DNA from: an uncultured Acidobacteriota bacterium
Lineage (GTDB): Bacteria; Acidobacteriota; Thermoanaerobaculia; Multivoradales; SZUA-115
Direction of reading: 5' to 3'
NCBI GenBank assembly: GCA_963805975.1
Contig: CAWDVR010000001.1
Coordinates: 1,248,001 to 1,312,000, forward strand
DNA: 64,000 nucleotides
Shown: positions 1 to 12,404 of the stretch, piece after piece
How the letters are laid out: each line of letters starts with the position of its first letter
Position numbering within the stretch: the stretch's first letter is position 1
Notes under the pieces: model-generated
Told to the model about the DNA's origin: nothing
Database searches by the model: none
What the model saw: the letters and a program-made list of their open reading frames with translations, nothing else
Translations under genes and position numbers: made by a program

Positions 1-1
1 C

Positions 2-187
2 GGCCGGCAGGGAGCGCTCTACGGCATCGGCCTGTCGATCGTGCTCGGCATGGTGTTCTTCGGCGTGCTGGCGCTGTTCACCGCCCTCGGCGGCGCTGCC
101 GTCCTGCCGCCGACGATCGCCGTCTGGGCACCGAGCGTGGTATTCGCGACGCTGGCGGTTTATCTCTTCCTGGGTGTTCGAAGCTGA
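2..187 (+). CDS. C-terminal fragment of LptF/LptG-family permease (partial, runs off window start)
   Basis: Frame 2 translates to GRQGALYGIGLSIVLGMVFFGVLALFTALGGAAVLPPTIAVWAPSVVFATLAVYLFLGVRS*, resembling the LptF/G C-terminal TM segment (G..LPP..AxWxP). Confidence 0.7.
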   Translation, partial: GRQGALYGIGLSIVLGMVFFGVLALFTALGGAAVLPPTIAVWAPSVVFATLAVYLFLGVRS

Positions 188-212
188 GCCGGCCACGGCC
201 TCGCGCGCAGCG

Positions 213-1442
213 TCAGAACCGCGACAGATCTCGGCCGAAGAGGCGGCTCTTGATCCAGTCGAAGAGCACCTTGACCTTGTTGGCCAGGCTCACTAGCTTG
301 GTCAGGTAGACCGAGCGCCAGAACAGCCAGGCGACCCGGCCGCTCCACTTGAATTGCGGCAGGTCGGCCAGCGCGCGGCCGCCTCCGATGTAGGCGAGCA
401 TGCCTTGCGGCCTGAAGCGAAAGGGCGGTACTTCTTCACCGACCGCGAGCCTGGGAAGCGACCGTGCCAGGTACTTGCCTTGCTGCTGTGCGACCTGGGC
501 GGTAGCCGGCAGCGGTGGCTCTGGCGAGGCGCAATCGCCGGCCGCGAAGACTCCCGGCAGGCCGGGCACTCGCAGCCAGGCATCGACGGCGAGGCGCCTG
601 CCCTCCCCCATCGGCTCGCCGAGCGTCGAGATGAAGGGTACCGGGGCGTTTCCTCCGGCCCAGATGACCAGGCCACAGTCCAAGACCTCTCCACCCTCGA
701 GCACCACCCGATCGGGCCCCACCTCCGTCACCCGCACGGAAAGCCGCAAGTCCACTCCTTCCCGCTTGAACTGGCTCTGGGTGTAGTCGGCCAAGGCCTC
801 GTCGAAGCCGCGCAGAATCCGCGTCCCGGCTTCGAGCAGGAGAACACGGGCGTAGCGGGCGAGATCGCCATAGCTGCGCCGTATCTCGTGGTCGAGCAAG
901 TCGTCGAGCTCGGCCGCCACCTCGACGCCGGTTGGACCGGCCCCGCAAACCACGAAGGTCAGGCGGCGGGCGATCTCCTGCTCGGAGATGCCGGGGACAT
1001 TGGCCTTGCCGAACTGCGCGAGCACGCGCTGGCGGATCTCTCGCGCCTGCTCCACCGAGGTAAGGGTGAGCGCGTAGGGATCGACCCCGGGAACTCCGTA
1101 GTCGGACACTGCACTGCCGACGGCGATCAACAGCACGTCGAAGGGCAGCGCGAACTCCTCTCCGGTCAGGACGCTCCGGCACCGCACCTGCCGTGAGGCG
1201 CGATCGAGGGCCAGGGCCTCGGCCTCGATCACCTTCACCCACCGCAGGCGGCGTCGGGCGGGCTCGAGGATGCTGCGGAACTCGACGGTGCCGGTGACCG
1301 CGGACGGCAGCAGCGGGGTGAAGAGGAAGTAGTTGCGCGGCGTGACCAAGACCGCATCCCAGTCACGCGCCTTGGCGCGTGACAGGAGCGAGTAGCCTGC
1401 GAACCCACAGCCGAGGACGATCAGTTTTTTCTTGGAGCTCAT
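213..1442 (-). CDS. ndh: Type II NADH:quinone oxidoreductase (NDH-2)
   Basis: GCGFAG FAD motif, FLFTPLLP, second Rossmann GAGPTGVE, ATAQVAQQQG, C-terminal WLFWRSVYL. Confidence 0.9.
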   Translation of the reverse strand: MSSKKKLIVLGCGFAGYSLLSRAKARDWDAVLVTPRNYFLFTPLLPSAVTGTVEFRSILEPARRRLRWVKVIEAEALALDRASRQVRCRSVLTGEEFALPFDVLLIAVGSAVSDYGVPGVDPYALTLTSVEQAREIRQRVLAQFGKANVPGISEQEIARRLTFVVCGAGPTGVEVAAELDDLLDHEIRRSYGDLARYARVLLLEAGTRILRGFDEALADYTQSQFKREGVDLRLSVRVTEVGPDRVVLEGGEVLDCGLVIWAGGNAPVPFISTLGEPMGEGRRLAVDAWLRVPGLPGVFAAGDCASPEPPLPATAQVAQQQGKYLARSLPRLAVGEEVPPFRFRPQGMLAYIGGGRALADLPQFKWSGRVAWLFWRSVYLTKLVSLANKVKVLFDWIKSRLFGRDLSRF

Positions 1443-1505
1443 GGCCTTGGAGGCGCATCATCCCCCGCCTGTGGCCTCCGCCGCAATGCGCCCAATCAGG
1501 CAGGC

Positions 1506-2114
1506 TCAGCGCAAACCTGCTCCACCGTCAGGACGCCTGGCGAGGAGCACTTGCCGGGTCATCGCCGTCAGGCAACGCGAGGTCAGCTTGCCGATGCTGG
1601 CCGGGCGATAGCCGAGCAGGCGAGCGACCTCGGGAGGCTCGAGACCCAGGCAGTACCGCAGGTGCAAGAGCACCCGACAGCGAGCAGAGAGGCGGCCCAG
1701 CAGCTTGGTCACATCGCACCACAGCTCGGCCCTCTCCTGGGGCGGCGGCACCCCTGCAGCGAGCCACTCGAGAACGGAGACCTCGGCCGCGTCGTAGAGC
1801 CGGCGCCTCTGCTGGCGCCAGTACACCAGGCATCCTTTGCGCAGCGTTCCGATCAACCAGGCTTCGGGCTCACGGATGCTCGCCCAGTGGTAAACCAGCG
1901 CGAGCAGAGCCTGCTGCAGGACGTCCTCGGTGTCGTCGGCCGGGATGCGGTACTGGGAGAGCACCCGCCGGAGGTGAGGGCGGACCCGGGTGAGAAAGCT
2001 CTCGAATGCGGTCGAAGATTCGGGGGAAAGAAAAAGACTGCGCGAAAAGTTCTCTCGTTCGGTAACCACCGAACCGAGGATAGCCGAAAGGCGAAACCCC
2101 GGCAAGGAGGCCAC
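1506..2114 (-). CDS. ECF-type sigma-70 factor (paralog 3)
   Basis: DTEDVLQ...AWL region-2 motif and LSARCRVLLHLRY..GL...EVARLLG region-4 HTH; start codon uncertain. Confidence 0.8.
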   Translation of the reverse strand: MASLPGFRLSAILGSVVTERENFSRSLFLSPESSTAFESFLTRVRPHLRRVLSQYRIPADDTEDVLQQALLALVYHWASIREPEAWLIGTLRKGCLVYWRQQRRRLYDAAEVSVLEWLAAGVPPPQERAELWCDVTKLLGRLSARCRVLLHLRYCLGLEPPEVARLLGYRPASIGKLTSRCLTAMTRQVLLARRPDGGAGLR

Positions 2115-2143
2115 ACGAGGCAGAGCGGAGCGGGCCCTCCCGA

Positions 2144-2686
2144 TCAGTCGAGGTCGGGAAGAAGCGTCGTCTGGCTGAAGCCTGCCTCGAGCAGCTCCCG
2201 GGTCAGCGAGGCGAGGCAGCGGCTGGTGACCTTGCGGATGCTGGACTGCCGATAGCCCATCCGCTCGGCGACCTCCGAGGAGCTACAGCCCAGCCCGTAG
2301 CGAAGGCGGAGCAAGGAGCGACAACGGGGCGGGAGCTTGCAGACCAGGCGATCGAGATCGTAGCGCAGCTCGGCCTTCTTCTGGCTGGGTGCCTCCGGCT
2401 CGGACAGCAGCTCGAGGATCGCGGTGTCCACTGCCTGGAAGAGGTGCTTCCGCTTCTTGCGCCAGTAGATCAGGCAGCGGTTGCGCAGCGTGACGATCAG
2501 CCACGCCTCCGGGTTGCGCACCACGTCCTGCTTGTGAATCAGGGTAAGAAAGGTTTCCTGGAGAACGTCGTCGGCATCCTGGGACGGGATGCGGTAACGG
2601 CCGAGAATCTGCACCAGCTTGGGCTGCACGTCTCGCAGGAGATCTTCGAAGACGACCGGCTCAGGAGCAGCGAAAGGAATGGTCAT
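2144..2686 (-). CDS. ECF-type sigma-70 factor (paralog 2)
   Basis: DADDVLQETFL, EAWL, LPPRCRSLLRLRY..EVAERMG; ATG at 2686 preceded by AGGAGG. Confidence 0.85.
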   Translation of the reverse strand: MTIPFAAPEPVVFEDLLRDVQPKLVQILGRYRIPSQDADDVLQETFLTLIHKQDVVRNPEAWLIVTLRNRCLIYWRKKRKHLFQAVDTAILELLSEPEAPSQKKAELRYDLDRLVCKLPPRCRSLLRLRYGLGCSSSEVAERMGYRQSSIRKVTSRCLASLTRELLEAGFSQTTLLPDLD

Positions 2687-2693
2687 AATCCTC

Positions 2694-3257
2694 CTAGAGC
2701 ACCGGGTCCGCAGGTTCTTCCGGCACTTCCGGCAGGAAGCCAACAGCGACCAACTGCCGGTTGAGCGCCGCCAGGCAACGGCTTGCCACCTTGCGAATGC
2801 TCGAGGCCCGGTAGCCCAGACGATCGGCGACCTCGGCCGGCTTGTATCCCAGCCCGTAACGGAGGCGAAGCAAATTCTGGCACCGCGCCGGCAGACACTC
2901 GAGCGCGCGCTCCAGATCGTGTGAAAGCTCCGACTGCGCCTGTTCCGGTGAGGCCGGTTCCGCCAGCAGCTCGAGGATCGCGGAGTCCACCGCGTCGGTC
3001 AGGCGTGAGCGCCGGCTGCGCCAATACATCAGGCAGCGCCGCTTGAGCGTGGCCAAGAGCCAAGCCTCGGCGCTGTGGATCTTCTCCCACTTGTACAAGA
3101 GGGTCAGAACGGAGTCCTGGATCAGATCCTCCGCATCCTGGGGCGGGATCTGGTAGTAACAGAGGATCCGTTCCAGCTTCGGCTGAACCTTGGGTACCAG
3201 GCGGTTCAGCGATTCCCAGGCAGAAGGGTCGTCAAGAGTCGCCATGCGAATTCCCAT
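2694..3257 (-). CDS. ECF-type sigma-70 factor (paralog 1)
   Basis: DAEDLIQD, EAWL, LPARCQNLLRLRY..EVADRLG; ATG at 3257 preceded by GGAGG (alternative ATG 3245). Confidence 0.85.
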   Translation of the reverse strand: MGIRMATLDDPSAWESLNRLVPKVQPKLERILCYYQIPPQDAEDLIQDSVLTLLYKWEKIHSAEAWLLATLKRRCLMYWRSRRSRLTDAVDSAILELLAEPASPEQAQSELSHDLERALECLPARCQNLLRLRYGLGYKPAEVADRLGYRASSIRKVASRCLAALNRQLVAVGFLPEVPEEPADPVL

Positions 3258-3407
3258 ACCCTCCGAACGTTGTCTCCCTGCCGGCTGATGGGAGATTCTA
3301 TCCCATCTCCAGCCCGAGACCTCGATCCTTTGCGCCGCTGCCGGCCATTCTCTCGGGAGATCCAGCTCATGCAACGGGGTCGCGCCGAATCATTCCCAGG
3401 TCTCTAT

Positions 3408-3436
3408 ATGCTAACACCACCGGCCGAACCTGTCTA
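3408..3436 (-). promoter_or_regulatory. Putative sigma70-like promoter for the sigma triplet
   Basis: Minus strand TAGACA-N17-TAGCAT with extended TG before the -10. Confidence 0.5.
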
Positions 3437-3575
3437 CAGTTTTTCTCAGTGCAGCACTGTTGTCGTTTCCCCGTCGGAGACTTGGCATACTCGGCGGACT
3501 AACCCAGACTTTCGCGAAAGTAGAGAAGGAGAGATGAGGCACTCTCTTTTGGGTACGGTCCCTACACGCCAGGCT

Positions 3576-4757
3576 CTATGCCCCGATACCGGCCACGACC
3601 TCGCCCGGTACTCCGGCCGCCGCCCGGATCTCTGCCGCACGGTCCGTCCGCTCCCAACTGAAACCCGATTCGGCGCGGCCGAAGTGGCCGTATGCCGCGG
3701 TCTGCCGATAGATCGGCTGCCGCAGAGCGAGGAACTCGATGATGCCGCGCGGGGAGAGCGGGAAATGCTCGCGCACCAAGCCCTCGATCCGGCGATCGTC
3801 GATGCACCCCGTGCCCCGGCTGTCGACGTGGATGGAGACCGGCTCGGCAACGCCGATCGCATAGGCGAGCTGGATCGCCACGGTGTCCGCCAGGCCGGCC
3901 GCCACCAGGTTCTTGGCAATGTGCCGGGCCATGTAGCTCGCCGAACGGTCCACCTTCGTCGGGTCTTTGCCCGAGAACGCCCCTCCCCCGTGGCTGCCCA
4001 CGCCGCCGTAGGTGTCGACGATGATCTTGCGGCCGGTCAGGCCGCAGTCTCCTTGCGGCCCGCCGATGACGAAGCGGCCGGTGGGGTTGATGTGGAAGAT
4101 GGTGTCGCCGTCGATCCACTGGCTGGGGATCACCGGGCGGATGACGCCCTCGATGACCTCCGCTTTCAGCTCGTCGAGGGGAACGTCCGGATGGTGTTGC
4201 GTGGAAACGACGACCGTGTGCACCCGGCTCGGCCGGCCGTCGGCATACTCGACGGTCACCTGGCTCTTGCCGTCCGGGCGCAACCAGCGGATCTCGCCGC
4301 TGCGCCGCGCCTCGGCCAGGCGGCGGGTCAGCTTGTGCGCCAGGGTGATCGGCAACGGCATCAGCTCGTCAGTCTCGCGGCAGGCGTAGCCGAACATGAT
4401 CCCCTGGTCGCCGGCGCCGCCGGTGTCGACGCCCATCGCGATGTCGGGCGACTGCGGGTCGATCGCCGAGATCACCGAGCAGGTATTGCCGTCGAAGCCG
4501 ATCGCGGCGTCGTCATAGCCGATGTCGAGGATCACGCCGCGCGCCACGCGCGCGAAGTCGACCCGGGCCTGCGTCGTGATCTCGCCGGCGAGGAACGCCA
4601 AGCCGGTCGTGACCAGGGACTCGCAAGCCACTCGGCTCGTGGGGTCCTGCTTCAGAACCTCGTCGAGGATGGCGTCGGAGATCTGGTCACAGACCTTGTC
4701 GGGGTGCCCCTCGGTCACCGACTCGGAGGAAAAGAGGTAGTGGTGCGCTCGGCTCAT
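3576..4757 (-). CDS. metK: S-adenosylmethionine synthetase
   Basis: [26 protein letters not shown] motifs. Confidence 0.98.
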
Positions 4758-4851
4758 CGATCTTCACCTTGAATTGACTTCGTAAATGAACTCGTTTTGG
4801 GTCGAGGAGGGAGGGTACTTCAGCGATGGTAGCAGAGCGACGCCGCCGGCG

Positions 4852-5448
4852 TCACTCCCCCGCTCTGCTCTGCAGCACCCCGTAGCAAAGAGTCGAAAGA
4901 GCGTGGAAAGTGGAGAGCGCGACGGCAGTCCGACGGGTCTCGACACCCGCCGTCACCGAGCTGATGATGCCGCCCTGGCGCCGGGTTCCGGGAATGGTGA
5001 CCCGCTCGCTGCCACCGGCGATCTCGCTCGACAGATGGCGATCGGGGAGCTGCACGGCGCCGCTCGAGCCGCAAGCTTCGCCGAGCGCGCTCGCCACCAC
5101 GCACCAGCTGCGGATGAAATAGCGAGTCCGACCGGCGACCTCGACCGGCTGCAGGCCGCCTTCGATCGCGACGTAGAAATGATAGGTGTCGCGCAGGCGA
5201 TCTCGCAGCTCGACCGCCTGCGACCTGGCCAGCTCGAGGGTGGCCTGATCGGTGATCGGCAGGCCGGCGGCCGGTTCGTCTTGCTGTTGCGGCACCACGA
5301 CCACGGAGGTGGCGCGCTGGAGGCCTTGTTGGAAATAACGCAGGAAGGCGTCGCGCACGCCCAGGAGCTTCTCCGGGGCCGCACCCGCGACGGTGACCTC
5401 GACGCCCTGTTGGAGACGGCGCCAGAACTCCTTAGGATGCTCGTTCAT
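4852..5448 (-). CDS. DUF84 / YjjX-like non-canonical purine NTP phosphatase (divergent)
   Basis: V.....PEK..GVRDAF, AIEGG, G.SGAVQLP, GIISSVTAGVETR resemble YjjX; start ATG 5448 or GTG 5454. Confidence 0.65.
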   Translation of the reverse strand: MNEHPKEFWRRLQQGVEVTVAGAAPEKLLGVRDAFLRYFQQGLQRATSVVVVPQQQDEPAAGLPITDQATLELARSQAVELRDRLRDTYHFYVAIEGGLQPVEVAGRTRYFIRSWCVVASALGEACGSSGAVQLPDRHLSSEIAGGSERVTIPGTRRQGGIISSVTAGVETRRTAVALSTFHALSTLCYGVLQSRAGE

Positions 5449-6226
5449 GATCACCAGCCGCCAGAATAGGACGCTGAAGGATATTCGCCGTCTCCGGCGA
5501 AGTAAAGGCGACTGGGTGCTGCTCGAGGGCGAGCACCTGGTCGCCGAGGCCATCGCCGGCGGCCTGCTTCTGCACGACGTGCTGGCGACACCGGAGTACC
5601 TGGCGACTCCCGCGGGACAGGCCCTCGCCCGGCGAGTTTCCTTCCCCCTGACCGAAGTGGCCGCCGAGGCCATGCGCTCGCTGGCCGACACCGATTCACC
5701 GCCAGGCGTGCTGGCGACCGCCGAGCTTCCGCGGCTGAAGGTCGAGGAGCTGCCGATGATCGAAGGCGGCGTCTACGTCTATGGCGACGGCTTGCAGGAT
5801 CCCGGCAATCTGGGCGCACTCGCCCGGGTTGCGGAGGCGAGCGGCGCCGCCGCCCTGGCCCTGGCACCCGGCGGCGCTCACCCCAACCACCCGCGGGCCC
5901 TCCGCGCCTCGGCCGGCAGCTTGCTAAGGCTGCCCACCGCAACCCAGGTCGTCCCCGAGGCACTGGCCCGTCACCTGCGACCGATCGAGCCGCGTTGGAT
6001 CTGCCTGGTCGCGGCCGGTGGCGAGAGTCTCTATGAAGCCGACCTCACCGGACCGCTGGTGGTGGCGATCGGCGCCGAGGGTCCAGGAGTGTCGAGCCCG
6101 GTGCTCGAGCGCGCCGACCGCCGCATCACCATCCCCGTCCGCCCCCCGGTCGAGTCCCTCAACGCGACCGTCGCCGCCGCTCTCACGCTCTTCGAGGCAG
6201 CAAGGCAGCGAGTCGGCCGGCTCTAG
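5447..6226 (+). CDS. TrmH/SpoU family RNA methyltransferase
   Basis: ITSRQN N-terminus, LQDPGNLG, IGAEGPG, ESLNATVA motifs. Confidence 0.92.
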   Translation: MITSRQNRTLKDIRRLRRSKGDWVLLEGEHLVAEAIAGGLLLHDVLATPEYLATPAGQALARRVSFPLTEVAAEAMRSLADTDSPPGVLATAELPRLKVEELPMIEGGVYVYGDGLQDPGNLGALARVAEASGAAALALAPGGAHPNHPRALRASAGSLLRLPTATQVVPEALARHLRPIEPRWICLVAAGGESLYEADLTGPLVVAIGAEGPGVSSPVLERADRRITIPVRPPVESLNATVAAALTLFEAARQRVGRL

Positions 6227-7206
6227 CTCTTGGCCTCGCGCACCGCCTGGGTGATCAACGGCAGCAGCTCGTGCAGGTCGCCGACGATGCCGTACCGGGC
6301 GATCTGGAAGATGGGGGCGCTCGGATCCTTGTTGATGGCGACGATGACCGACGAGCCCTTCATCCCCACCGTGTGCTGGATGGCGCCGGAGATCCCGGCC
6401 GCGATGTAGAGCCGTGGCGCCACGGTCTGGCCGCTCGAGCCGATCTGGCGGTCGCGGGGCAGCCAGCCGTTGTCGATCACCGGCCGGCTGGCCGCGATCT
6501 CGGCGCCCAGGGCCTTCGCCAGCTCCTCGATGGGGCCCAGCTTGTCGGCGCCGCCCACGCCCCGCCCGGCTGCGACGATGATTCCCGCCTTGGTGAGGTC
6601 GACCTTCTCGCCGCCCACCGCTTCGACGCCGAGGATCTCGCGGTCCGGCCGGGCCGCGTCGAGATCCACGGCCAGCGCTGCGATCGGCGCGGAGCCGCTC
6701 TCGGCCGAGTCGGCGGCGAAGGCTCCGGACTGCACGGAGAGGATCACCGTGCCCTCCCCCTTCACCCGCACCCGTGCCTCCATCTTGCCGCCCAGGATGG
6801 GCCGCTTCCACACCAAGCCCTCGGCCCCCCCCTCGAAGCCCGTGACCTCCGGCAGCAGGCCAGACCCCGTCGCCTGCGCCAGGCGGGCCATGAAGTCCAC
6901 AGACTGGTAGGTATGGGGCAGGACCACGAAGCTCGGGCGGTCGGCGGCGATCGCCGGCGCCAGGGCCGCCACGTAAGCGCCCGGCGTGTAGGCCGCGAGA
7001 TGCGGATGGTCCGCGACCCGGACGGCGCCCAACTGGTAGCCCGCCACGGTCTCGGCGAGAGAGGCGACGCCGGACCCCAGGAGGATCGCTTCCGCAGTCG
7101 CACCGATCTCCTGGGCCAGGCGCTGTCCGGCCGCGAGAGCCTCGCGAGACATGCGGTGGAGCTGGCCTTCACGCTGCTGTACGACCACCCAGACCGTGCT
7201 CGCCAT
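6223..7206 (-). CDS. etfA: Electron transfer flavoprotein alpha subunit
   Basis: [38 protein letters not shown]. Confidence 0.95.
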
Positions 7207-7207
7207 C

Positions 7208-8002
7208 TCAGATCACCCTCGCTTCTTGCTGTAGCTTGGCGACCAGCGCCTTCGCCGCCGTGGCTGGATCGCCGGTCAGGATCTCCGCTCCGGAGCCGCT
7301 CGCCGGGAAGGCCACGGAAACGATCTCCAGCCGCGAGCCGGCGGCTCCCACCTCTTCGGCGGCGAGGCCGAGATCGGCTGCCTTCACTTCGTCTACCGGC
7401 TTTTTCTTCGCCGCCATGATCCCTTTGAGCGACGGGTAGCGCGGGTGGTTGATCCCCGCCTGCACCTCGAGCACCGCGGGCAGCGCGAGGCGCAGGAGCT
7501 CGTTCATGCCGCTCTCCATCTCGCGGGTGACGCGGGCGTGCGTGCCGCTATCCTCGACCTCGATCCCCATCACCAGCCAGGCATGGGGCCAGCCGAGATG
7601 GCCGGCGATCACCGAGCCGGTGCCGCCGTAGCCGACGTCGTCGGACTGCGAGCCGGTGAGCACCAGGTCGAAGGTCTCGCGACCGATGGCGGCGGCGAGA
7701 GCTCTGCCGGTCGCCAGCGCGTCGCCGCCCGCGAAGCCGGGGTCGTTCAAGTGGACGGCGCGCGCGGCGCCCAGGGCCAGGGCCTTGCGGAGCGCGTCCT
7801 TGGCCCGCTCCGGGCCGAGCGTGAAGACGACCACCTCGCCACCCCGCTTCTCCGTCCACGCGAGCGCTTCTTCCAGCGCGTACTCGTCGCTCTCGTTGAG
7901 GACGAAGGGCAGATCGGATTCCTCGATCCATCGGCCGTCCCTCGCAACCCGGAGCCTCGCTTCCGTGTCGGGGACCTGCTTGATGCAAACAGCGATGCGC
8001 AT
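7208..8002 (-). CDS. etfB: Electron transfer flavoprotein beta subunit
   Basis: MRIAVCIKQVPD, DEYALEEAL, PRYPSLKGIMAAKKKP; AGGAG before ATG 8002. Confidence 0.95.
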   Translation of the reverse strand: MRIAVCIKQVPDTEARLRVARDGRWIEESDLPFVLNESDEYALEEALAWTEKRGGEVVVFTLGPERAKDALRKALALGAARAVHLNDPGFAGGDALATGRALAAAIGRETFDLVLTGSQSDDVGYGGTGSVIAGHLGWPHAWLVMGIEVEDSGTHARVTREMESGMNELLRLALPAVLEVQAGINHPRYPSLKGIMAAKKKPVDEVKAADLGLAAEEVGAAGSRLEIVSVAFPASGSGAEILTGDPATAAKALVAKLQQEARVI

Positions 8003-8171
8003 CGCGATATCTCCTGCGGCAGAAAGACGCGGCGAAGCCCGAAAGCGGCGGCAGGATAACACGCTGCAACGAGCCTCGGCCGGTGCTCGGCGCGTGGACA
8101 GATGCCGGCCCGCATGCTACCTTTCGCGCCGGCTCGGCGGCCATTCCGCGAGCCGGCTCGCGGGCTATCCC

Positions 8172-8921
8172 ATGCACATACCTGCCGTTCTTCCGTTCGC
8201 TCTCCTCGCCGCCGCGCAACCGCCGTCGGGCGCCGCGGGCTCGGGCCTGACGGAGTCGTTCGCGCGCTCCGGACCGATGGCGAAAGTGGTCCTCGCCATC
8301 CTAGTCGGCTTCTCGCTCGTCTCCTGGGCGATCATGATCTGGAAGGTGCTCCAGCTCCGCCAGGCCGAGCGCCAGAGCGCGCAGTTCCTCGACACCTTCC
8401 GCCACAGCAAGCGCTTCTCCGAGGTCAGCGCCATGGCGCCGCGCGTGCACTCCTCGCCGCTCTTCGGCATCTTCCAGGCCGGTTACGCCGAGATCGACAC
8501 CCAGATCAAGAGCCAGGAGCCGGCCGGTGCCAACGACCCCAAGCGCTACCGCATCCGCTCCCTGGCCTCGGTCGAGCGGAGCCTGCGCCGGGCGCTGGCG
8601 GCCGAGCTCGGAGACCTCGCCCGCGGCAGCCACTTCCTCGCCACCACCGCCGCCGCCACGCCGTTCATCGGCCTCTTCGGCACGGTGTGGGGCATCATGA
8701 GCTCCTTCCAGCAGATCGGTGCCACCGGCTCGACCTCGCTGGACGCCATCGCACCGGGCATCGCCGAGGCGCTGATCAACACCGCGGCCGGCCTGGGTGC
8801 GGCGATCCCGGCGCTCGTCGGTTACAACTTCCTCGCCCACCGCCTGCGGCGATTGCGGGCGGGAATGGAAGACTTCGTGAGCGAGTTCCTGAATCTGACG
8901 GAGAGGAATTTCACGGCATGA
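8172..8921 (+). CDS. tolQ: TolQ (MotA/TolQ/ExbB family)
   Basis: TPFIGLFGTVWGIM, APGIAEALINTAAGL; first gene of tol-pal cluster. Confidence 0.92.
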   Translation: MHIPAVLPFALLAAAQPPSGAAGSGLTESFARSGPMAKVVLAILVGFSLVSWAIMIWKVLQLRQAERQSAQFLDTFRHSKRFSEVSAMAPRVHSSPLFGIFQAGYAEIDTQIKSQEPAGANDPKRYRIRSLASVERSLRRALAAELGDLARGSHFLATTAAATPFIGLFGTVWGIMSSFQQIGATGSTSLDAIAPGIAEALINTAAGLGAAIPALVGYNFLAHRLRRLRAGMEDFVSEFLNLTERNFTA

Positions 8922-8970
8922 GTGGCACGGCATGAGTGGCACGGCATGAGCGGCACGGCATGAGCGGCAC
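8912..8970 (+). repeat. 14-bp tandem repeat x4 (CACGGCATGAGYGG) at tolQ/tolR junction
   Basis: Four consecutive units read directly at 8912, 8926, 8940, 8954. Confidence 0.95.
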
Positions 8971-8973
8971 CCG

Positions 8974-9405
8974 ATGATGAACCCGGGCGCCGATTCCGAA
9001 GACGAGGTCCTGGCCGACATCAACGTCACTCCCCTGGTGGACGTGATGCTGGTGCTGCTCATCATCTTCATGATCGCCGCGCCGATGCTGCACCAGGGCA
9101 TTCCCGTCGAGCTGCCCAAGGCGCAGGCGCAGCCACTGCCGCAAGACGTGAAAGACCCGCTCGTGCTCTCCGTCAACCGCGACGGCATCGTCTACCTCCG
9201 GGACACCCCGGTGCATCCCAGCCAGCTCGTCCAGCGCCTGCTGCCGCAGCTCCAGGCGCGCAGTGACAAGAGCGTTTTTTTAAAAGGCGACAAGGACGTG
9301 GCCTACGGCAAGGTGATCGAGGTGCTGGAGGTGCTGCGCCAGGGAGGGATCACCGACGTGGGCATGGTGACCGAACCGCTCCGACCTTCGGGCACCGCTC
9401 GCTAG
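8974..9405 (+). CDS. tolR: TolR (ExbD/TolR family)
   Basis: INVTPLVDVMLVLLIIFMI motif. Confidence 0.93.
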   Translation: MMNPGADSEDEVLADINVTPLVDVMLVLLIIFMIAAPMLHQGIPVELPKAQAQPLPQDVKDPLVLSVNRDGIVYLRDTPVHPSQLVQRLLPQLQARSDKSVFLKGDKDVAYGKVIEVLEVLRQGGITDVGMVTEPLRPSGTAR

Positions 9406-9421
9406 CGTTCCGCAACGCGCC

Positions 9422-10207
9422 ATGGCCGACCTCGTGGACCAGGTCCTTGCCGAGCGCCGGCGGCGAACCTCGAGCCGCGGTTTTCTCGGGGGCCTGATCA
9501 CCGCCTCCCTGCTCCACCTGAGCGTGCTCCTGTCCGTCGTCCTGCTGCCCACCGGGGAGCGGCAAGTGCCCACGGAATACGTCAACGTGCGCGTGGTGCC
9601 GCTGGCCGCACTCGGTACCCCGAAGCCTCCGGTCCCGCGGCCCCAACCCCCCGAGCCTCAGCCCCCCGAGCCTCAACCCGAGGCTCCGACTCCACCGGCC
9701 CCCGAACCCGAGCCAGCCACGAAGCCCAGCCCCGCCGAGCCGGAGCCAGCCCCGCGGGCAACGGCTCCGGTGCTCCCGCAGGCGAAGCCGCAGAAACCGC
9801 AGTCGGAACCGAGGGTAGCGGCACCGGCTGACGAGCCGGCCACGGACGCGGCGCCGGTGCCACCCCAGCGCGCCGGCTCGGCGCAAGGAAGCGTTGCCGG
9901 CACCTCGGCCTTCGGCACCCTGGAAGGCATCGACCCGGATTTCACCTACGATTACTACCTGGACCGGATGCTGGCGCTGATCCACGCGCAGTGGCTACGG
10001 CCGCCGGCCGAGGGAGAGGTCAAGGCCGTGGTGCGGTTCGTGGTGAGCAGGAGCGGCGAGATCACGGACCTGGAGCTCGCCGAGCCCTCCGGCTTCAACG
10101 CCTTCGACCTCGCCGCCCTGCGCGCGGTGCAGAACGCGAGCCCCTTGCCCAGGCTGCCCGCGAGCTACCGTCGCGACTCACTGCAAGTGACCCTCATCGT
10201 CCGCTAG
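9422..10207 (+). CDS. tolA: TolA/TonB-like energy transducer
   Basis: TM anchor with SxxxH, Pro-rich linker, C-terminal SGFNAFDLAALRAV..ASPLP domain; position in tol-pal cluster. Confidence 0.8.
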   Translation: MADLVDQVLAERRRRTSSRGFLGGLITASLLHLSVLLSVVLLPTGERQVPTEYVNVRVVPLAALGTPKPPVPRPQPPEPQPPEPQPEAPTPPAPEPEPATKPSPAEPEPAPRATAPVLPQAKPQKPQSEPRVAAPADEPATDAAPVPPQRAGSAQGSVAGTSAFGTLEGIDPDFTYDYYLDRMLALIHAQWLRPPAEGEVKAVVRFVVSRSGEITDLELAEPSGFNAFDLAALRAVQNASPLPRLPASYRRDSLQVTLIVR

Positions 10208-10226
10208 ACCTTCCCGAAAGGCCGAC

Positions 10227-11627
10227 ATGCGCTGCCACCGCTCTCCACGAACCGCCCTCTACGCCGCCGCCGGCTCGTGGCTCGCCGGCGTGGCGGCACT
10301 CACCGCGCTCGGCGGGCTGGCCTGGGCCTCGCCGGCGTTTGCCCAGGCTCCTCCGGCCACCACGGAACCACCGCCCGGCTCCGGCGTGGTGCTCGAGCTC
10401 TCCGGCGGCCAGGCGGCCTTGCTCAAGCTCGCCTTCCCGGACTTCGAGCGTCAAGAGAGCCTGGCCGGTGCCGCCCGAGATGCCGCGGCGGAGCTCGAGG
10501 CCACGCTCCGCGCCGACCTCGAGGAGACCCGGGTCTTCGAGATCCAGGGGCCACAGGCCCTCTCGGTGCTGACGCTCTCCGGCGACCGCGCCCGGGACTT
10601 CGAGCAGTATCGCTCCCTCGGCAACCAGCTCCTGCTCTCTGCCGCTCTGCTCCGCGAGGGCGACCGGCTGGTCTTCGAGGGCACGCTCTACAACCTGGAC
10701 GACGGCAAGTCGATCCTCGGCAAACGCTACCGCGGCGGCTTCGAGATGGCGCGCCAGATGGCGCACACCTTCGCCGACGAGATCCTGGCCTACCTGACCG
10801 GCCGCGCCGGCATCGCCCGCACCACCCTCGCCTTCTCTTCCGACCGCGACCAGCCGGGGCGCAAAGAGATCTACCTGATGGACTACGACGGCCACAACCA
10901 GCGGCGGCTGACCGCCCACCGCTCGACCTCGCTGTCGCCGGCCTGGGCGCTCGACGGCTCGGGGGTCGCCTATACCTCGTTCTTCAGCGGCACGCCGGGC
11001 ATCTACTTCGCGGAGGTCTCGAACGGCCGCAAGACCCCGATCACCAACCAGGGGCGCTTCAACGTCTCGCCCAGCCTCTCGCCGGACGGCAGGCGCGTGG
11101 TCTTCGCCCGCTCGCTGGACGGCAACGTGGAGATCTTCATCGCCAACCGGGACGGCAGCAACGCGCGCCAGCTCACCCATTCCTCCGCCATCGACACCAA
11201 CCCGAGCTGGAGCCCCAAGGGCAACGAGATCGCTTTCACCTCGAGCCGGGCCGGCAGCCCGCAGATCTACGCCATGGACCCGGAGGGGACCAGCGTGCGG
11301 CGCCTGTCTTTTGACGGCGAGTACAACGACAACGCGGCCTGGAGCCCGGACGGCACCAAGATCGCGTACTCCTCGCGTCGCAACGGCCGCTTCCAGATCG
11401 CCGTGAGCGACGTCGTGACGCTCGACACGAAGGTGCTGACCAACGGTCCCGGCAGCCAGGAGGACCCCAGCTTCTCGCCCGACGGCCGGCGCATCGCCTT
11501 CGCCAGCAAGCGCGGCGCAGGGAAGCAGATCTGGCTGATGGACGCCGAAACCGGTCAGAACCTCAAGCAGCTCACCACGGCCGGCAACAACGACTCTCCG
11601 GCCTGGTCGCCCTACCCCACGCCATGA
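10227..11627 (+). CDS. tolB: TolB beta-propeller protein
   Basis: AHTFADEI, MDYDG, repeated PSWSPDG-type PD40 repeats. Confidence 0.95.
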   Translation: MRCHRSPRTALYAAAGSWLAGVAALTALGGLAWASPAFAQAPPATTEPPPGSGVVLELSGGQAALLKLAFPDFERQESLAGAARDAAAELEATLRADLEETRVFEIQGPQALSVLTLSGDRARDFEQYRSLGNQLLLSAALLREGDRLVFEGTLYNLDDGKSILGKRYRGGFEMARQMAHTFADEILAYLTGRAGIARTTLAFSSDRDQPGRKEIYLMDYDGHNQRRLTAHRSTSLSPAWALDGSGVAYTSFFSGTPGIYFAEVSNGRKTPITNQGRFNVSPSLSPDGRRVVFARSLDGNVEIFIANRDGSNARQLTHSSAIDTNPSWSPKGNEIAFTSSRAGSPQIYAMDPEGTSVRRLSFDGEYNDNAAWSPDGTKIAYSSRRNGRFQIAVSDVVTLDTKVLTNGPGSQEDPSFSPDGRRIAFASKRGAGKQIWLMDAETGQNLKQLTTAGNNDSPAWSPYPTP

Positions 11628-11751
11628 GCGGCGCAGTGAAGACCATTGATCCGATTGATTTCACGGGGTTTTTGCCCACCGGAGGGTTGCCGCCGTGGGC
11701 ACCCGTTTGCTAGAGTCTGCTCGGAGCAGCCGCAGCCGGCGGGCAATCCCC

Positions 11752-11786
11752 CTTGCAGTTTCGTGCCACTTGCAGTTTCGTGCCAC
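11752..11786 (+). repeat. 17-bp perfect direct tandem repeat x2 (CTTGCAGTTTCGTGCCA) upstream of pal
   Basis: Two adjacent copies at 11752 and 11769. Confidence 0.9.
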
Positions 11787-11822
11787 CGGGGCTTTTCGAC
11801 GTGATGGGAGGAGTGAGGGATC

Positions 11823-12404
11823 ATGAGCCGAAAGCAGATCGCGTTTGTCCTTCTACCTTTGGTTGCCGGCCTGGTTCTGGGTTGCCCCAAGAAGAAGCCC
11901 GAGCCACCCAAAGACGAGATCAAGATGGACACCACCCGGGTCGAGCCACCACCGACCCAGGAGATCCCCACCCCGCCGCCGTCCCCGCCGGCTGACGAGA
12001 CCGAGGTCGATCCCCTGGCCTCGGAGGATCTGCGCATCGTCAACGAGGAGGCGCGCCGGCAGGGCTTCACCGCCAATATCTACTTCGAGCTCGACAAAAG
12101 CGACCTGCTCGACGCCTCGCGCGACGCGCTGGCCCGCAATGCGGACTTCCTGAAGCGGCGGCCCGAGTTCGCTCTCACCATCGAAGGCCACTGCGACGAG
12201 CGCGGCACCAACGAGTACAACCTGGCGCTCGGCGAACGGCGTGCCAACGGCGTCAAGTCCTACCTCGCCTCCCTCGGGGTCTCGGCCGACCGGGTGGTGA
12301 CCATCAGCTATGGCGAGGAGCGGCCGGTGTGCACGGCGAGCGACGAGAGCTGCTGGTCGCAGAACCGCCGCGCCCACCTGCTGATCACTGGCCGGAAGCC
12401 GTGA
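11823..12404 (+). CDS. pal: Peptidoglycan-associated lipoprotein Pal
   Basis: Lipobox LVLGC, IEGHCDERGTNEYNLALGERRA, SYGEERP, NRR. Confidence 0.96.
   Translation: MSRKQIAFVLLPLVAGLVLGCPKKKPEPPKDEIKMDTTRVEPPPTQEIPTPPPSPPADETEVDPLASEDLRIVNEEARRQGFTANIYFELDKSDLLDASRDALARNADFLKRRPEFALTIEGHCDERGTNEYNLALGERRANGVKSYLASLGVSADRVVTISYGEERPVCTASDESCWSQNRRAHLLITGRKP

Follow-up and report, generated by a model that had tools for sequence, protein, structure and literature searches.

What controls a row of three ECF sigma factor genes that have no anti-sigma gene beside them? This question is raised by one end of the window, the 64-kb stretch of DNA analysed here from an uncultured Acidobacteriota bacterium, in which an initial annotation had described a tightly spaced operon of three diverged orphan sigma factors with conserved cysteines. 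In this report, we argue that the three sigma factors probably form the common output of a peptide-signalling network that has not been described before. They would be held inactive by anti-sigma proteins encoded at distant loci, designated ZAS-TPR proteins below, and would be freed once small secreted peptides, taken up again by the cell, have bound to the TPR part of these proteins. We assign this reading a probability of about one half.

The three genes are co-directional, as had been annotated, and occupy the minus strand, with metK as their upstream and an NDH-2 gene as their downstream neighbour (Pfam scan of the window): S1 (2694..3257, 187 aa; open frame 3257-2694), S2 (2144..2686, 180 aa; open frame 2686-2144), and S3, whose open frame runs from 2114 to 1506. 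The S3 protein probably starts at GTG 2069 (1506..2069, 187 aa), behind a promoter-like element of its own, TTGCCG-17-TATCCT (2077..2105, minus strand), which lies directly before this start and is matched in a genome of the same genus; this element was recognized by eye in the two genomes and carries no statistic. The contig of a close relative has a 1-nt deletion at window position 2113. The 29-nt gap before S3 had been counted from the longest open frame, and where S1 and S2 are 7 nt apart here, the genome of the same genus has about 90 nt, so the description as a tightly spaced operon was right in part only.

Sigma70_r2 exceeds the Pfam cut-off in each protein, the region-4 match does so in S1 and S2 and stays below it in S3 (20.8 vs 25.7 bits), and the ECF superfamily model TIGR02937 is passed by all three; each has sigma regions 2 and 4. 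With sigma2 and sigma4 as their only domains, a length of about 180 aa, and the ECF fold, they are ECF (group 4) sigma factors; a predicted model of S1 (pLDDT 87) matches solved ECF sigmas in a structure search. The acidic DAED motif, through which a sigma factor binds core polymerase, reads DAED, DADD, and DTED in the three proteins, is intact in S1, and keeps its first Asp in 114 of the 122 family copies sampled. None of the best 25 NCBIfam subfamily models for each protein reached its cut-off, and an Rfam scan of window positions 1-12000 gave no match. The shared motifs and the three invariant cysteines quoted in the initial annotation are present in the S1-S3 alignment, and pairwise identities are 55, 42, and 47%. 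That annotation was right in seeing an undescribed multi-sigma module that is no recent duplication: this is an old ECF module of several paralogs. The genes are intact and under purifying selection: relative to the same-genus genome, dN/dS is 0.036 for S1, 0.069 for S2, and 0.142 for S3, against 0.152 for the NDH-2 control, and thus none of the three looks degenerate. A contig of 1020 nt from a soil RNA library spans 2331-3350; such a contig is not proof of transcription, and its non-coverage of S3 is uninformative.

The sigma family is confined to one order. With S2 as the query (E<1e-30), 43 of the 61 genomes of the order gave a match, and in a sample of the phylum only 4 of 201 genomes did, all four from this order; among named records, the nearest are assemblies assigned to Thermoanaerobaculia or Acidobacteriota. 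The string “Thermoanaerobacul” has no occurrence in the accessible part of the ECF classification supplement (PMC7826278). We surveyed 60 loci, chosen as best hits and including kin that are not independent, and found tandem arrays at 35 of them (11 pairs, 22 triples, and 2 of four); all counts omit one locus that duplicates the array of another, and the set of 122 copies omits those below 150 bits. Among the eight genomes of the bacterium's own family, S1 and S2 each have an orthologue in all eight, and the S1-S2 pair is kept in 8/8, whereas a close orthologue of S3 was seen in the same genus only. In other words, tandem arrays are widespread and the pair is conserved, but the exact triplet (2/8) is genus-specific. 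In a tree built by a quick method, many forks are open, and positional orthologues stay together within families. S1 groups with partner-coupled copies at an SH-aLRT of only 92, and no claim of descent is therefore made.

The genome encodes a fourth full-length sigma of the family outside the window (C1:1331276-1331953, also L079:6277-6951, minus strand). The gene directly downstream of it encodes a protein of 726 aa that ends in a BTAD/SARP-like domain, a layout repeated in G004 and G023. A gene of about 271 aa without a Pfam match also recurs near sigma arrays of three genomes (L052:1385-2200, L054:6342-7157, and L063), on the opposite strand at L052 and L054.

The evidence for a partner comes from relatives of this bacterium. 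The reported lack of an anti-sigma gene holds for the window, in which no ZAS-TPR gene was found over 64 kb, but not for the genome, which has 14 ZAS-TPR genes (one frameshifted) and two truncated ones, all outside the window. In 37 of the 122 sampled family copies, a gene of this kind follows the sigma gene within 60 nt. It encodes a soluble protein of about 450 aa (382-481 aa) with a zinc anti-sigma (ZAS) N-terminus and a TPR body that resembles Rap and NprR (TPR_12 in 51 of 52 proteins). The zinc motif H-x3/4-C-x2-C is found in 32 of the 35 coupled partners and 39 of the 52 aligned proteins, and in 7 of the 14 encoded by the genome under study; the other seven lack it and may signal otherwise. 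A search of the N-terminal profile against 177,635 PDB sequences returned DdvA (1e-5), ChrR (6e-4), and RslA (3e-3); the N-terminus thus fits the ZAS anti-sigma class, with the zinc motif set in a three-helix bundle homologous to these proteins. A predicted structure of the protein (pLDDT 91.9, pTM 0.79) gave its best TM-scores with the CSF-bound Rap protein 4gyo (0.55) and with NprR and LGN (0.51); it should be mentioned that ranking by E-value places the eukaryotic LGN first, that TPR folds are generic, and that the sequence has no significant match to Rap (E 0.3). An Asn of the groove type is conserved at two positions in 45 of the 52 proteins.

ZAS-TPR proteins are present in 49 of the 61 genomes of the order, including all 43 that bear the sigma family (kin are not independent); the 12 genomes without ZAS-TPR all lack the sigma family, and six of the 61 have ZAS-TPR without a detected sigma. 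Among the 35 arrays, 19 contain a ZAS-TPR gene and 16 are partner-free. The latter come from three families, that of the window among them, whose genomes carry from 10 to at least 27 ZAS-TPR matches elsewhere, and no full-length array sigma in the window's family is coupled to a ZAS-TPR gene. In this family, an ancestral cassette of peptide, sigma, and sensor would have been split into a hub of four sigmas and 14 dispersed sensors.

Several ZAS-TPR loci have individual features. A stand-alone ZAS protein of 99 aa without TPR (L257:1150-1446, G059), encoded behind the TGTC motif described below, is a possible signal-blind anti-sigma. One ZAS-TPR gene is in two frames, by frameshift or assembly error (C2:839130-840602, L179), and stands behind an intact pro-peptide gene with three repeats. 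At L174:3465-4439 and L177:3898-4680, related genes, guessed from their sequences to encode DNA-binding proteins, are convergent with zinc-less ZAS-TPR paralogues, which may signal via a non-sigma partner.

A candidate for the signal is found next to the sensors. Reading by eye, we recognized a pro-peptide gene with a signal-like start upstream of 11 of the 14 ZAS-TPR genes of this genome; it adjoins the ZAS-TPR gene in 10 of the 14, and one more lies across a sigma2-only gene. The predicted products, of roughly 90-130 aa in this reading, begin with a signal-like segment, contain a stretch rich in Trp and Phe, and carry one to four motifs of the type G-x-x-x-[DLG]P[ND]G. Among the remaining three ZAS-TPR genes, two have short motif-bearing open frames without a signal and one has none. 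The pro-peptides measure about 73-137 aa, compared with the 10-100 aa of the RRNPP criterion, with signal peptides assigned by heuristic only. A strict scan, which missed several genes recognized by eye, retained five motif-bearing frames among 1159 signal-like ones, and all five are beside a ZAS-TPR gene. The same kind of pro-peptide gene occurs inside the sigma arrays of relatives, and the genome has two SBP_bac_5 genes. By analogy with Rap and NprR, we slightly favour the idea that the ligand of the TPR body would be a G-x-x-x-DP[ND]G peptide released by processing.

The same genes suggest what the freed sigmas may transcribe. In other genomes, a pattern of TGTC[CT], 15-17 nt, and [CG][GT]G[CT]A[AC]C[CT] stands before 15 of the 17 pro-peptide genes examined. 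The motif was seeded by eye and trained on those genomes, with the sites of the genome under study held out; five of these 13 held-out sites scored above the 95th background percentile, where about 0.65 would be expected, and three above the 99th, while eight were at background. The two best sites belong to units of a sigma2-only gene and a ZAS-TPR gene. Candidate promoters of this type in the genome under study lie at C5:44871 (plus strand), C5:626885 (minus strand), and C2:574937 (plus strand). Across ten whole genomes the pattern has 57 matches, five of them directly before ZAS-TPR or peptide genes, and chance matches also occur in genomes without the sigma family. No genome-wide regulon is claimed, because no enrichment was seen over reversed controls (74 vs 96, 18 vs 23, and 4 vs 2). 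We regard TGTC[CT]-~20 nt-AC, placed upstream of peptide and ZAS-TPR genes, as a candidate target promoter, and transcription from it by freed sigma, which would close a feedback loop, seems to us rather probable. ECF41 was considered as a reader of TGTC and rejected, the rejection covering ECF41 only: its published motif, TGTCACA-n16-CGTC (PMC3426412), differs, and no gene of the genome passes the SigJ cut-off. If the AC is kept at a fixed distance, the -10 part of the motif comes in two forms, G[CT]AAC and GCAC; different paralogues might read them. The proposal that the sigmas share a -35 element and differ in -10 specificity is supported to the extent that two -10 flavours stand behind one -35, although no flavour was matched to a paralogue. 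Two homologous genes without a Pfam family, L253:3-1367 (G023) and L276:21-1400 (G059), each stand behind a candidate TGTC promoter and are a possible conserved member of the regulon.

The main objection to our reading concerns the nature of the signal. The distant ZAS-TPR proteins may well hold the sigmas and yet respond to redox or metal at the zinc site, as ChrR and RsrA do, or to a protein bound by the TPR, with the peptides as mere output of the regulon. The homology of the ZAS domain to ChrR and RslA fits this, as does the candidate target promoter carried by the peptide genes themselves; moreover, an Acidobacteriota host has two membranes, and a re-imported peptide would need to cross both. 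On the contrary, a distinct peptide gene accompanies 11 of the 14 sensors, zinc-less ones included, the groove-type Asn residues are widely conserved, and the repeated core motifs would fit processed signals. We therefore regard a non-peptide signal as unlikely.

Another proposal is that the trio no longer answers to any anti-sigma; a disulfide or a metal at its own cysteines would then act as the switch, or the three sigmas would form a cascade or hetero-oligomer. The cysteines are kept in 118, 107, and 113 of the 122 copies, and all three together in 103. The position of Cys75 in region 2 is Ala in 8 and Cys in 4 of 24 other ECFs, whereas Cys126 and Cys161 in region 4 are family-specific, the position of the latter being Cys in 0 of the 34 other sigmas of the genome. 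These two residues may be structural or redox-active; Cys161 is lost in nine copies, eight of which also lack Cys126, and a cysteine switch would suit the partner-free arrays. However, the three cysteines are invariant in all 37 partner-coupled copies, so that they do not mark orphans, and their losses fall in the most divergent copies. Control of the ECF238 (CorE) type, whose hallmark is a Cys-rich C-terminal extension (PMC7826278), was rejected, as S1-S3 have no Cys after region 4.2. A cascade is argued against by the sigma genes themselves, which lack the candidate target motif (above 10 bits in 1 of 122 upstream regions). Taken together, control without an anti-sigma appears quite improbable.

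Phosphorylation of the conserved Ser in region 4.2, another early suggestion, found no support. This Ser aligns with Thr in 22 of the 36 other sigmas of the genome, the position of T169 in E. coli sigmaE, a DNA-contacting Thr (PMC1540707). In phospho-activated ECF43, the DAED is replaced by an S/T motif and a Ser/Thr kinase is adjacent (PMC8999054); unlike ECF43, the trio keeps its DAED motif, and no kinase cluster was seen among the scanned neighbours, so activation of this type was rejected.

The sigma genes have promoter-like sites of a different, housekeeping-like kind. A site with an extended -10, TAGACA-17-TAGCAT (3408..3436, minus strand), stands about 150 nt before S1, and its motif recurs before 70-77 of the 122 family genes. 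The pattern T[AG]GAC-N-16/18-TAnnnT accounts for 77 of them, against a mean of 1.1 and a maximum of 4 in shuffled sequence. Auto-regulation by the family through T[AG]GACA-TGnTAnnnT, a reading of a housekeeping-like promoter, would agree with the A or G at position -34 in 70 of 70 sites and with the finding that, of 20 matches across five whole genomes, 12 precede family sigmas. It is disfavoured, and in our view very improbable, as the motif is found before mraZ or tolQ also in four genomes with no copy of the family and its -10 equals that of TTGACA promoters. Because of those mraZ and tolQ sites, the primary sigma is the most likely reader. Quite probably, the sigmas would be expressed from housekeeping promoters, and their control would come after translation, when ZAS-TPR proteins bind them in trans. 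Inside the window, a similar site, TGGACA-17-TACCTT (8095-8123, plus strand), lies before tolQ/exbB; throughout the order, tolQ and mraZ have such a site upstream, and its position -34 is in all cases a purine.

The genome also has four family-derived genes that retain region 2 only, two of them directly upstream of ZAS-TPR genes. One coupled pair of a sigma2-only and a ZAS-TPR gene is found in six genomes of the family, and one stand-alone sigma2-only gene, with a dN/dS of 0.13-0.20, is likewise found in six. These proteins are 80-100 aa long, and their frames end 1-22 residues past sigma2. The second Asp of the DAED motif, which contacts the beta-prime subunit (PMC8999054), is lost in 15 of the 15 aligned sigma2-only proteins and kept in 118 of the 122 full-length copies. 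We infer that they are candidate decoys that would bind the anti-sigma and not the polymerase; that they occupy ZAS-TPR proteins without engaging polymerase and so tune the threshold is a tentative proposal. A more elaborate scheme is many-channel peptide quorum sensing: at least a dozen anti-sigma receptors, each specific for a peptide, would converge on three or four sigmas with a common -35 and differing -10 elements, with sigma2 decoys setting the thresholds; we consider this scheme doubtful.

Known systems, as described in the accessible parts of the papers cited here, share single features with this one. In ECF11 (sigmaE/ChrR), ECF270, and ECF271, a soluble ZAS anti-sigma is encoded in position +1 (PMC7826278). 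The relatives studied here likewise have a soluble zinc anti-sigma gene in +1, and the profile matches ChrR residues 4-89, but the sensor is a 350-aa TPR instead of a cupin or nothing, the partners number at least 14 per genome and are uncoupled from the sigma array, and the taxa described differ. RRNPP systems (Rap-Phr, NprR-NprX, PlcR-PapR, and AimR-AimP) have receptors of 250-500 aa with TPRs and occur in Firmicutes or their mobile elements (PMC10075063). ZAS-TPR proteins fall within the size range and TPR content of these receptors, their best TM-score is with a peptide-bound Rap, and a gene for a small, putatively secreted pro-peptide lies beside the gene for a cytoplasmic TPR protein; unlike RRNPP, the host belongs to Thermoanaerobaculia (Acidobacteriota) and has two membranes, the effector is an anti-sigma, and the precursors are somewhat longer. 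DdvA, from the DdvA-DdvS system of Myxococcus xanthus, also combines a zinc anti-sigma N-terminus with TPR and is the best PDB match of the N-terminal profile. However, DdvA is transmembrane, has a periplasmic TPR-CHAT part, and works by proteolysis (PMC11506125), whereas the ZAS-TPR model has neither a transmembrane part nor a periplasmic TPR-CHAT. As in PhyR-NepR-EcfG (PMC8999054), a sigma-like protein would titrate the anti-sigma, but the sigma2 domain here stands alone, without a receiver domain or kinase. A literature search, largely without subscription papers, found no description of a system of sigma, ZAS-TPR, and peptide.

Descriptions of intracellular peptide quorum sensing come from Firmicutes, where its outputs act as phosphatases or bind DNA. 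If the more elaborate scheme above is true, peptide sensing, anti-sigma control, and sigma mimicry are combined in one circuit of a two-membrane bacterium. The parts of the proposed system are small and soluble and its ligands and promoter are predicted, which makes it testable in E. coli and a possible source of orthogonal peptide-controlled switches. The locus is also a caution: the anti-sigma of an “orphan” ECF can be encoded in trans. With a version of peptide sensing in soil Acidobacteriota whose output is a sigma factor, cell-cell signalling would reach into a phylum that has received little study.
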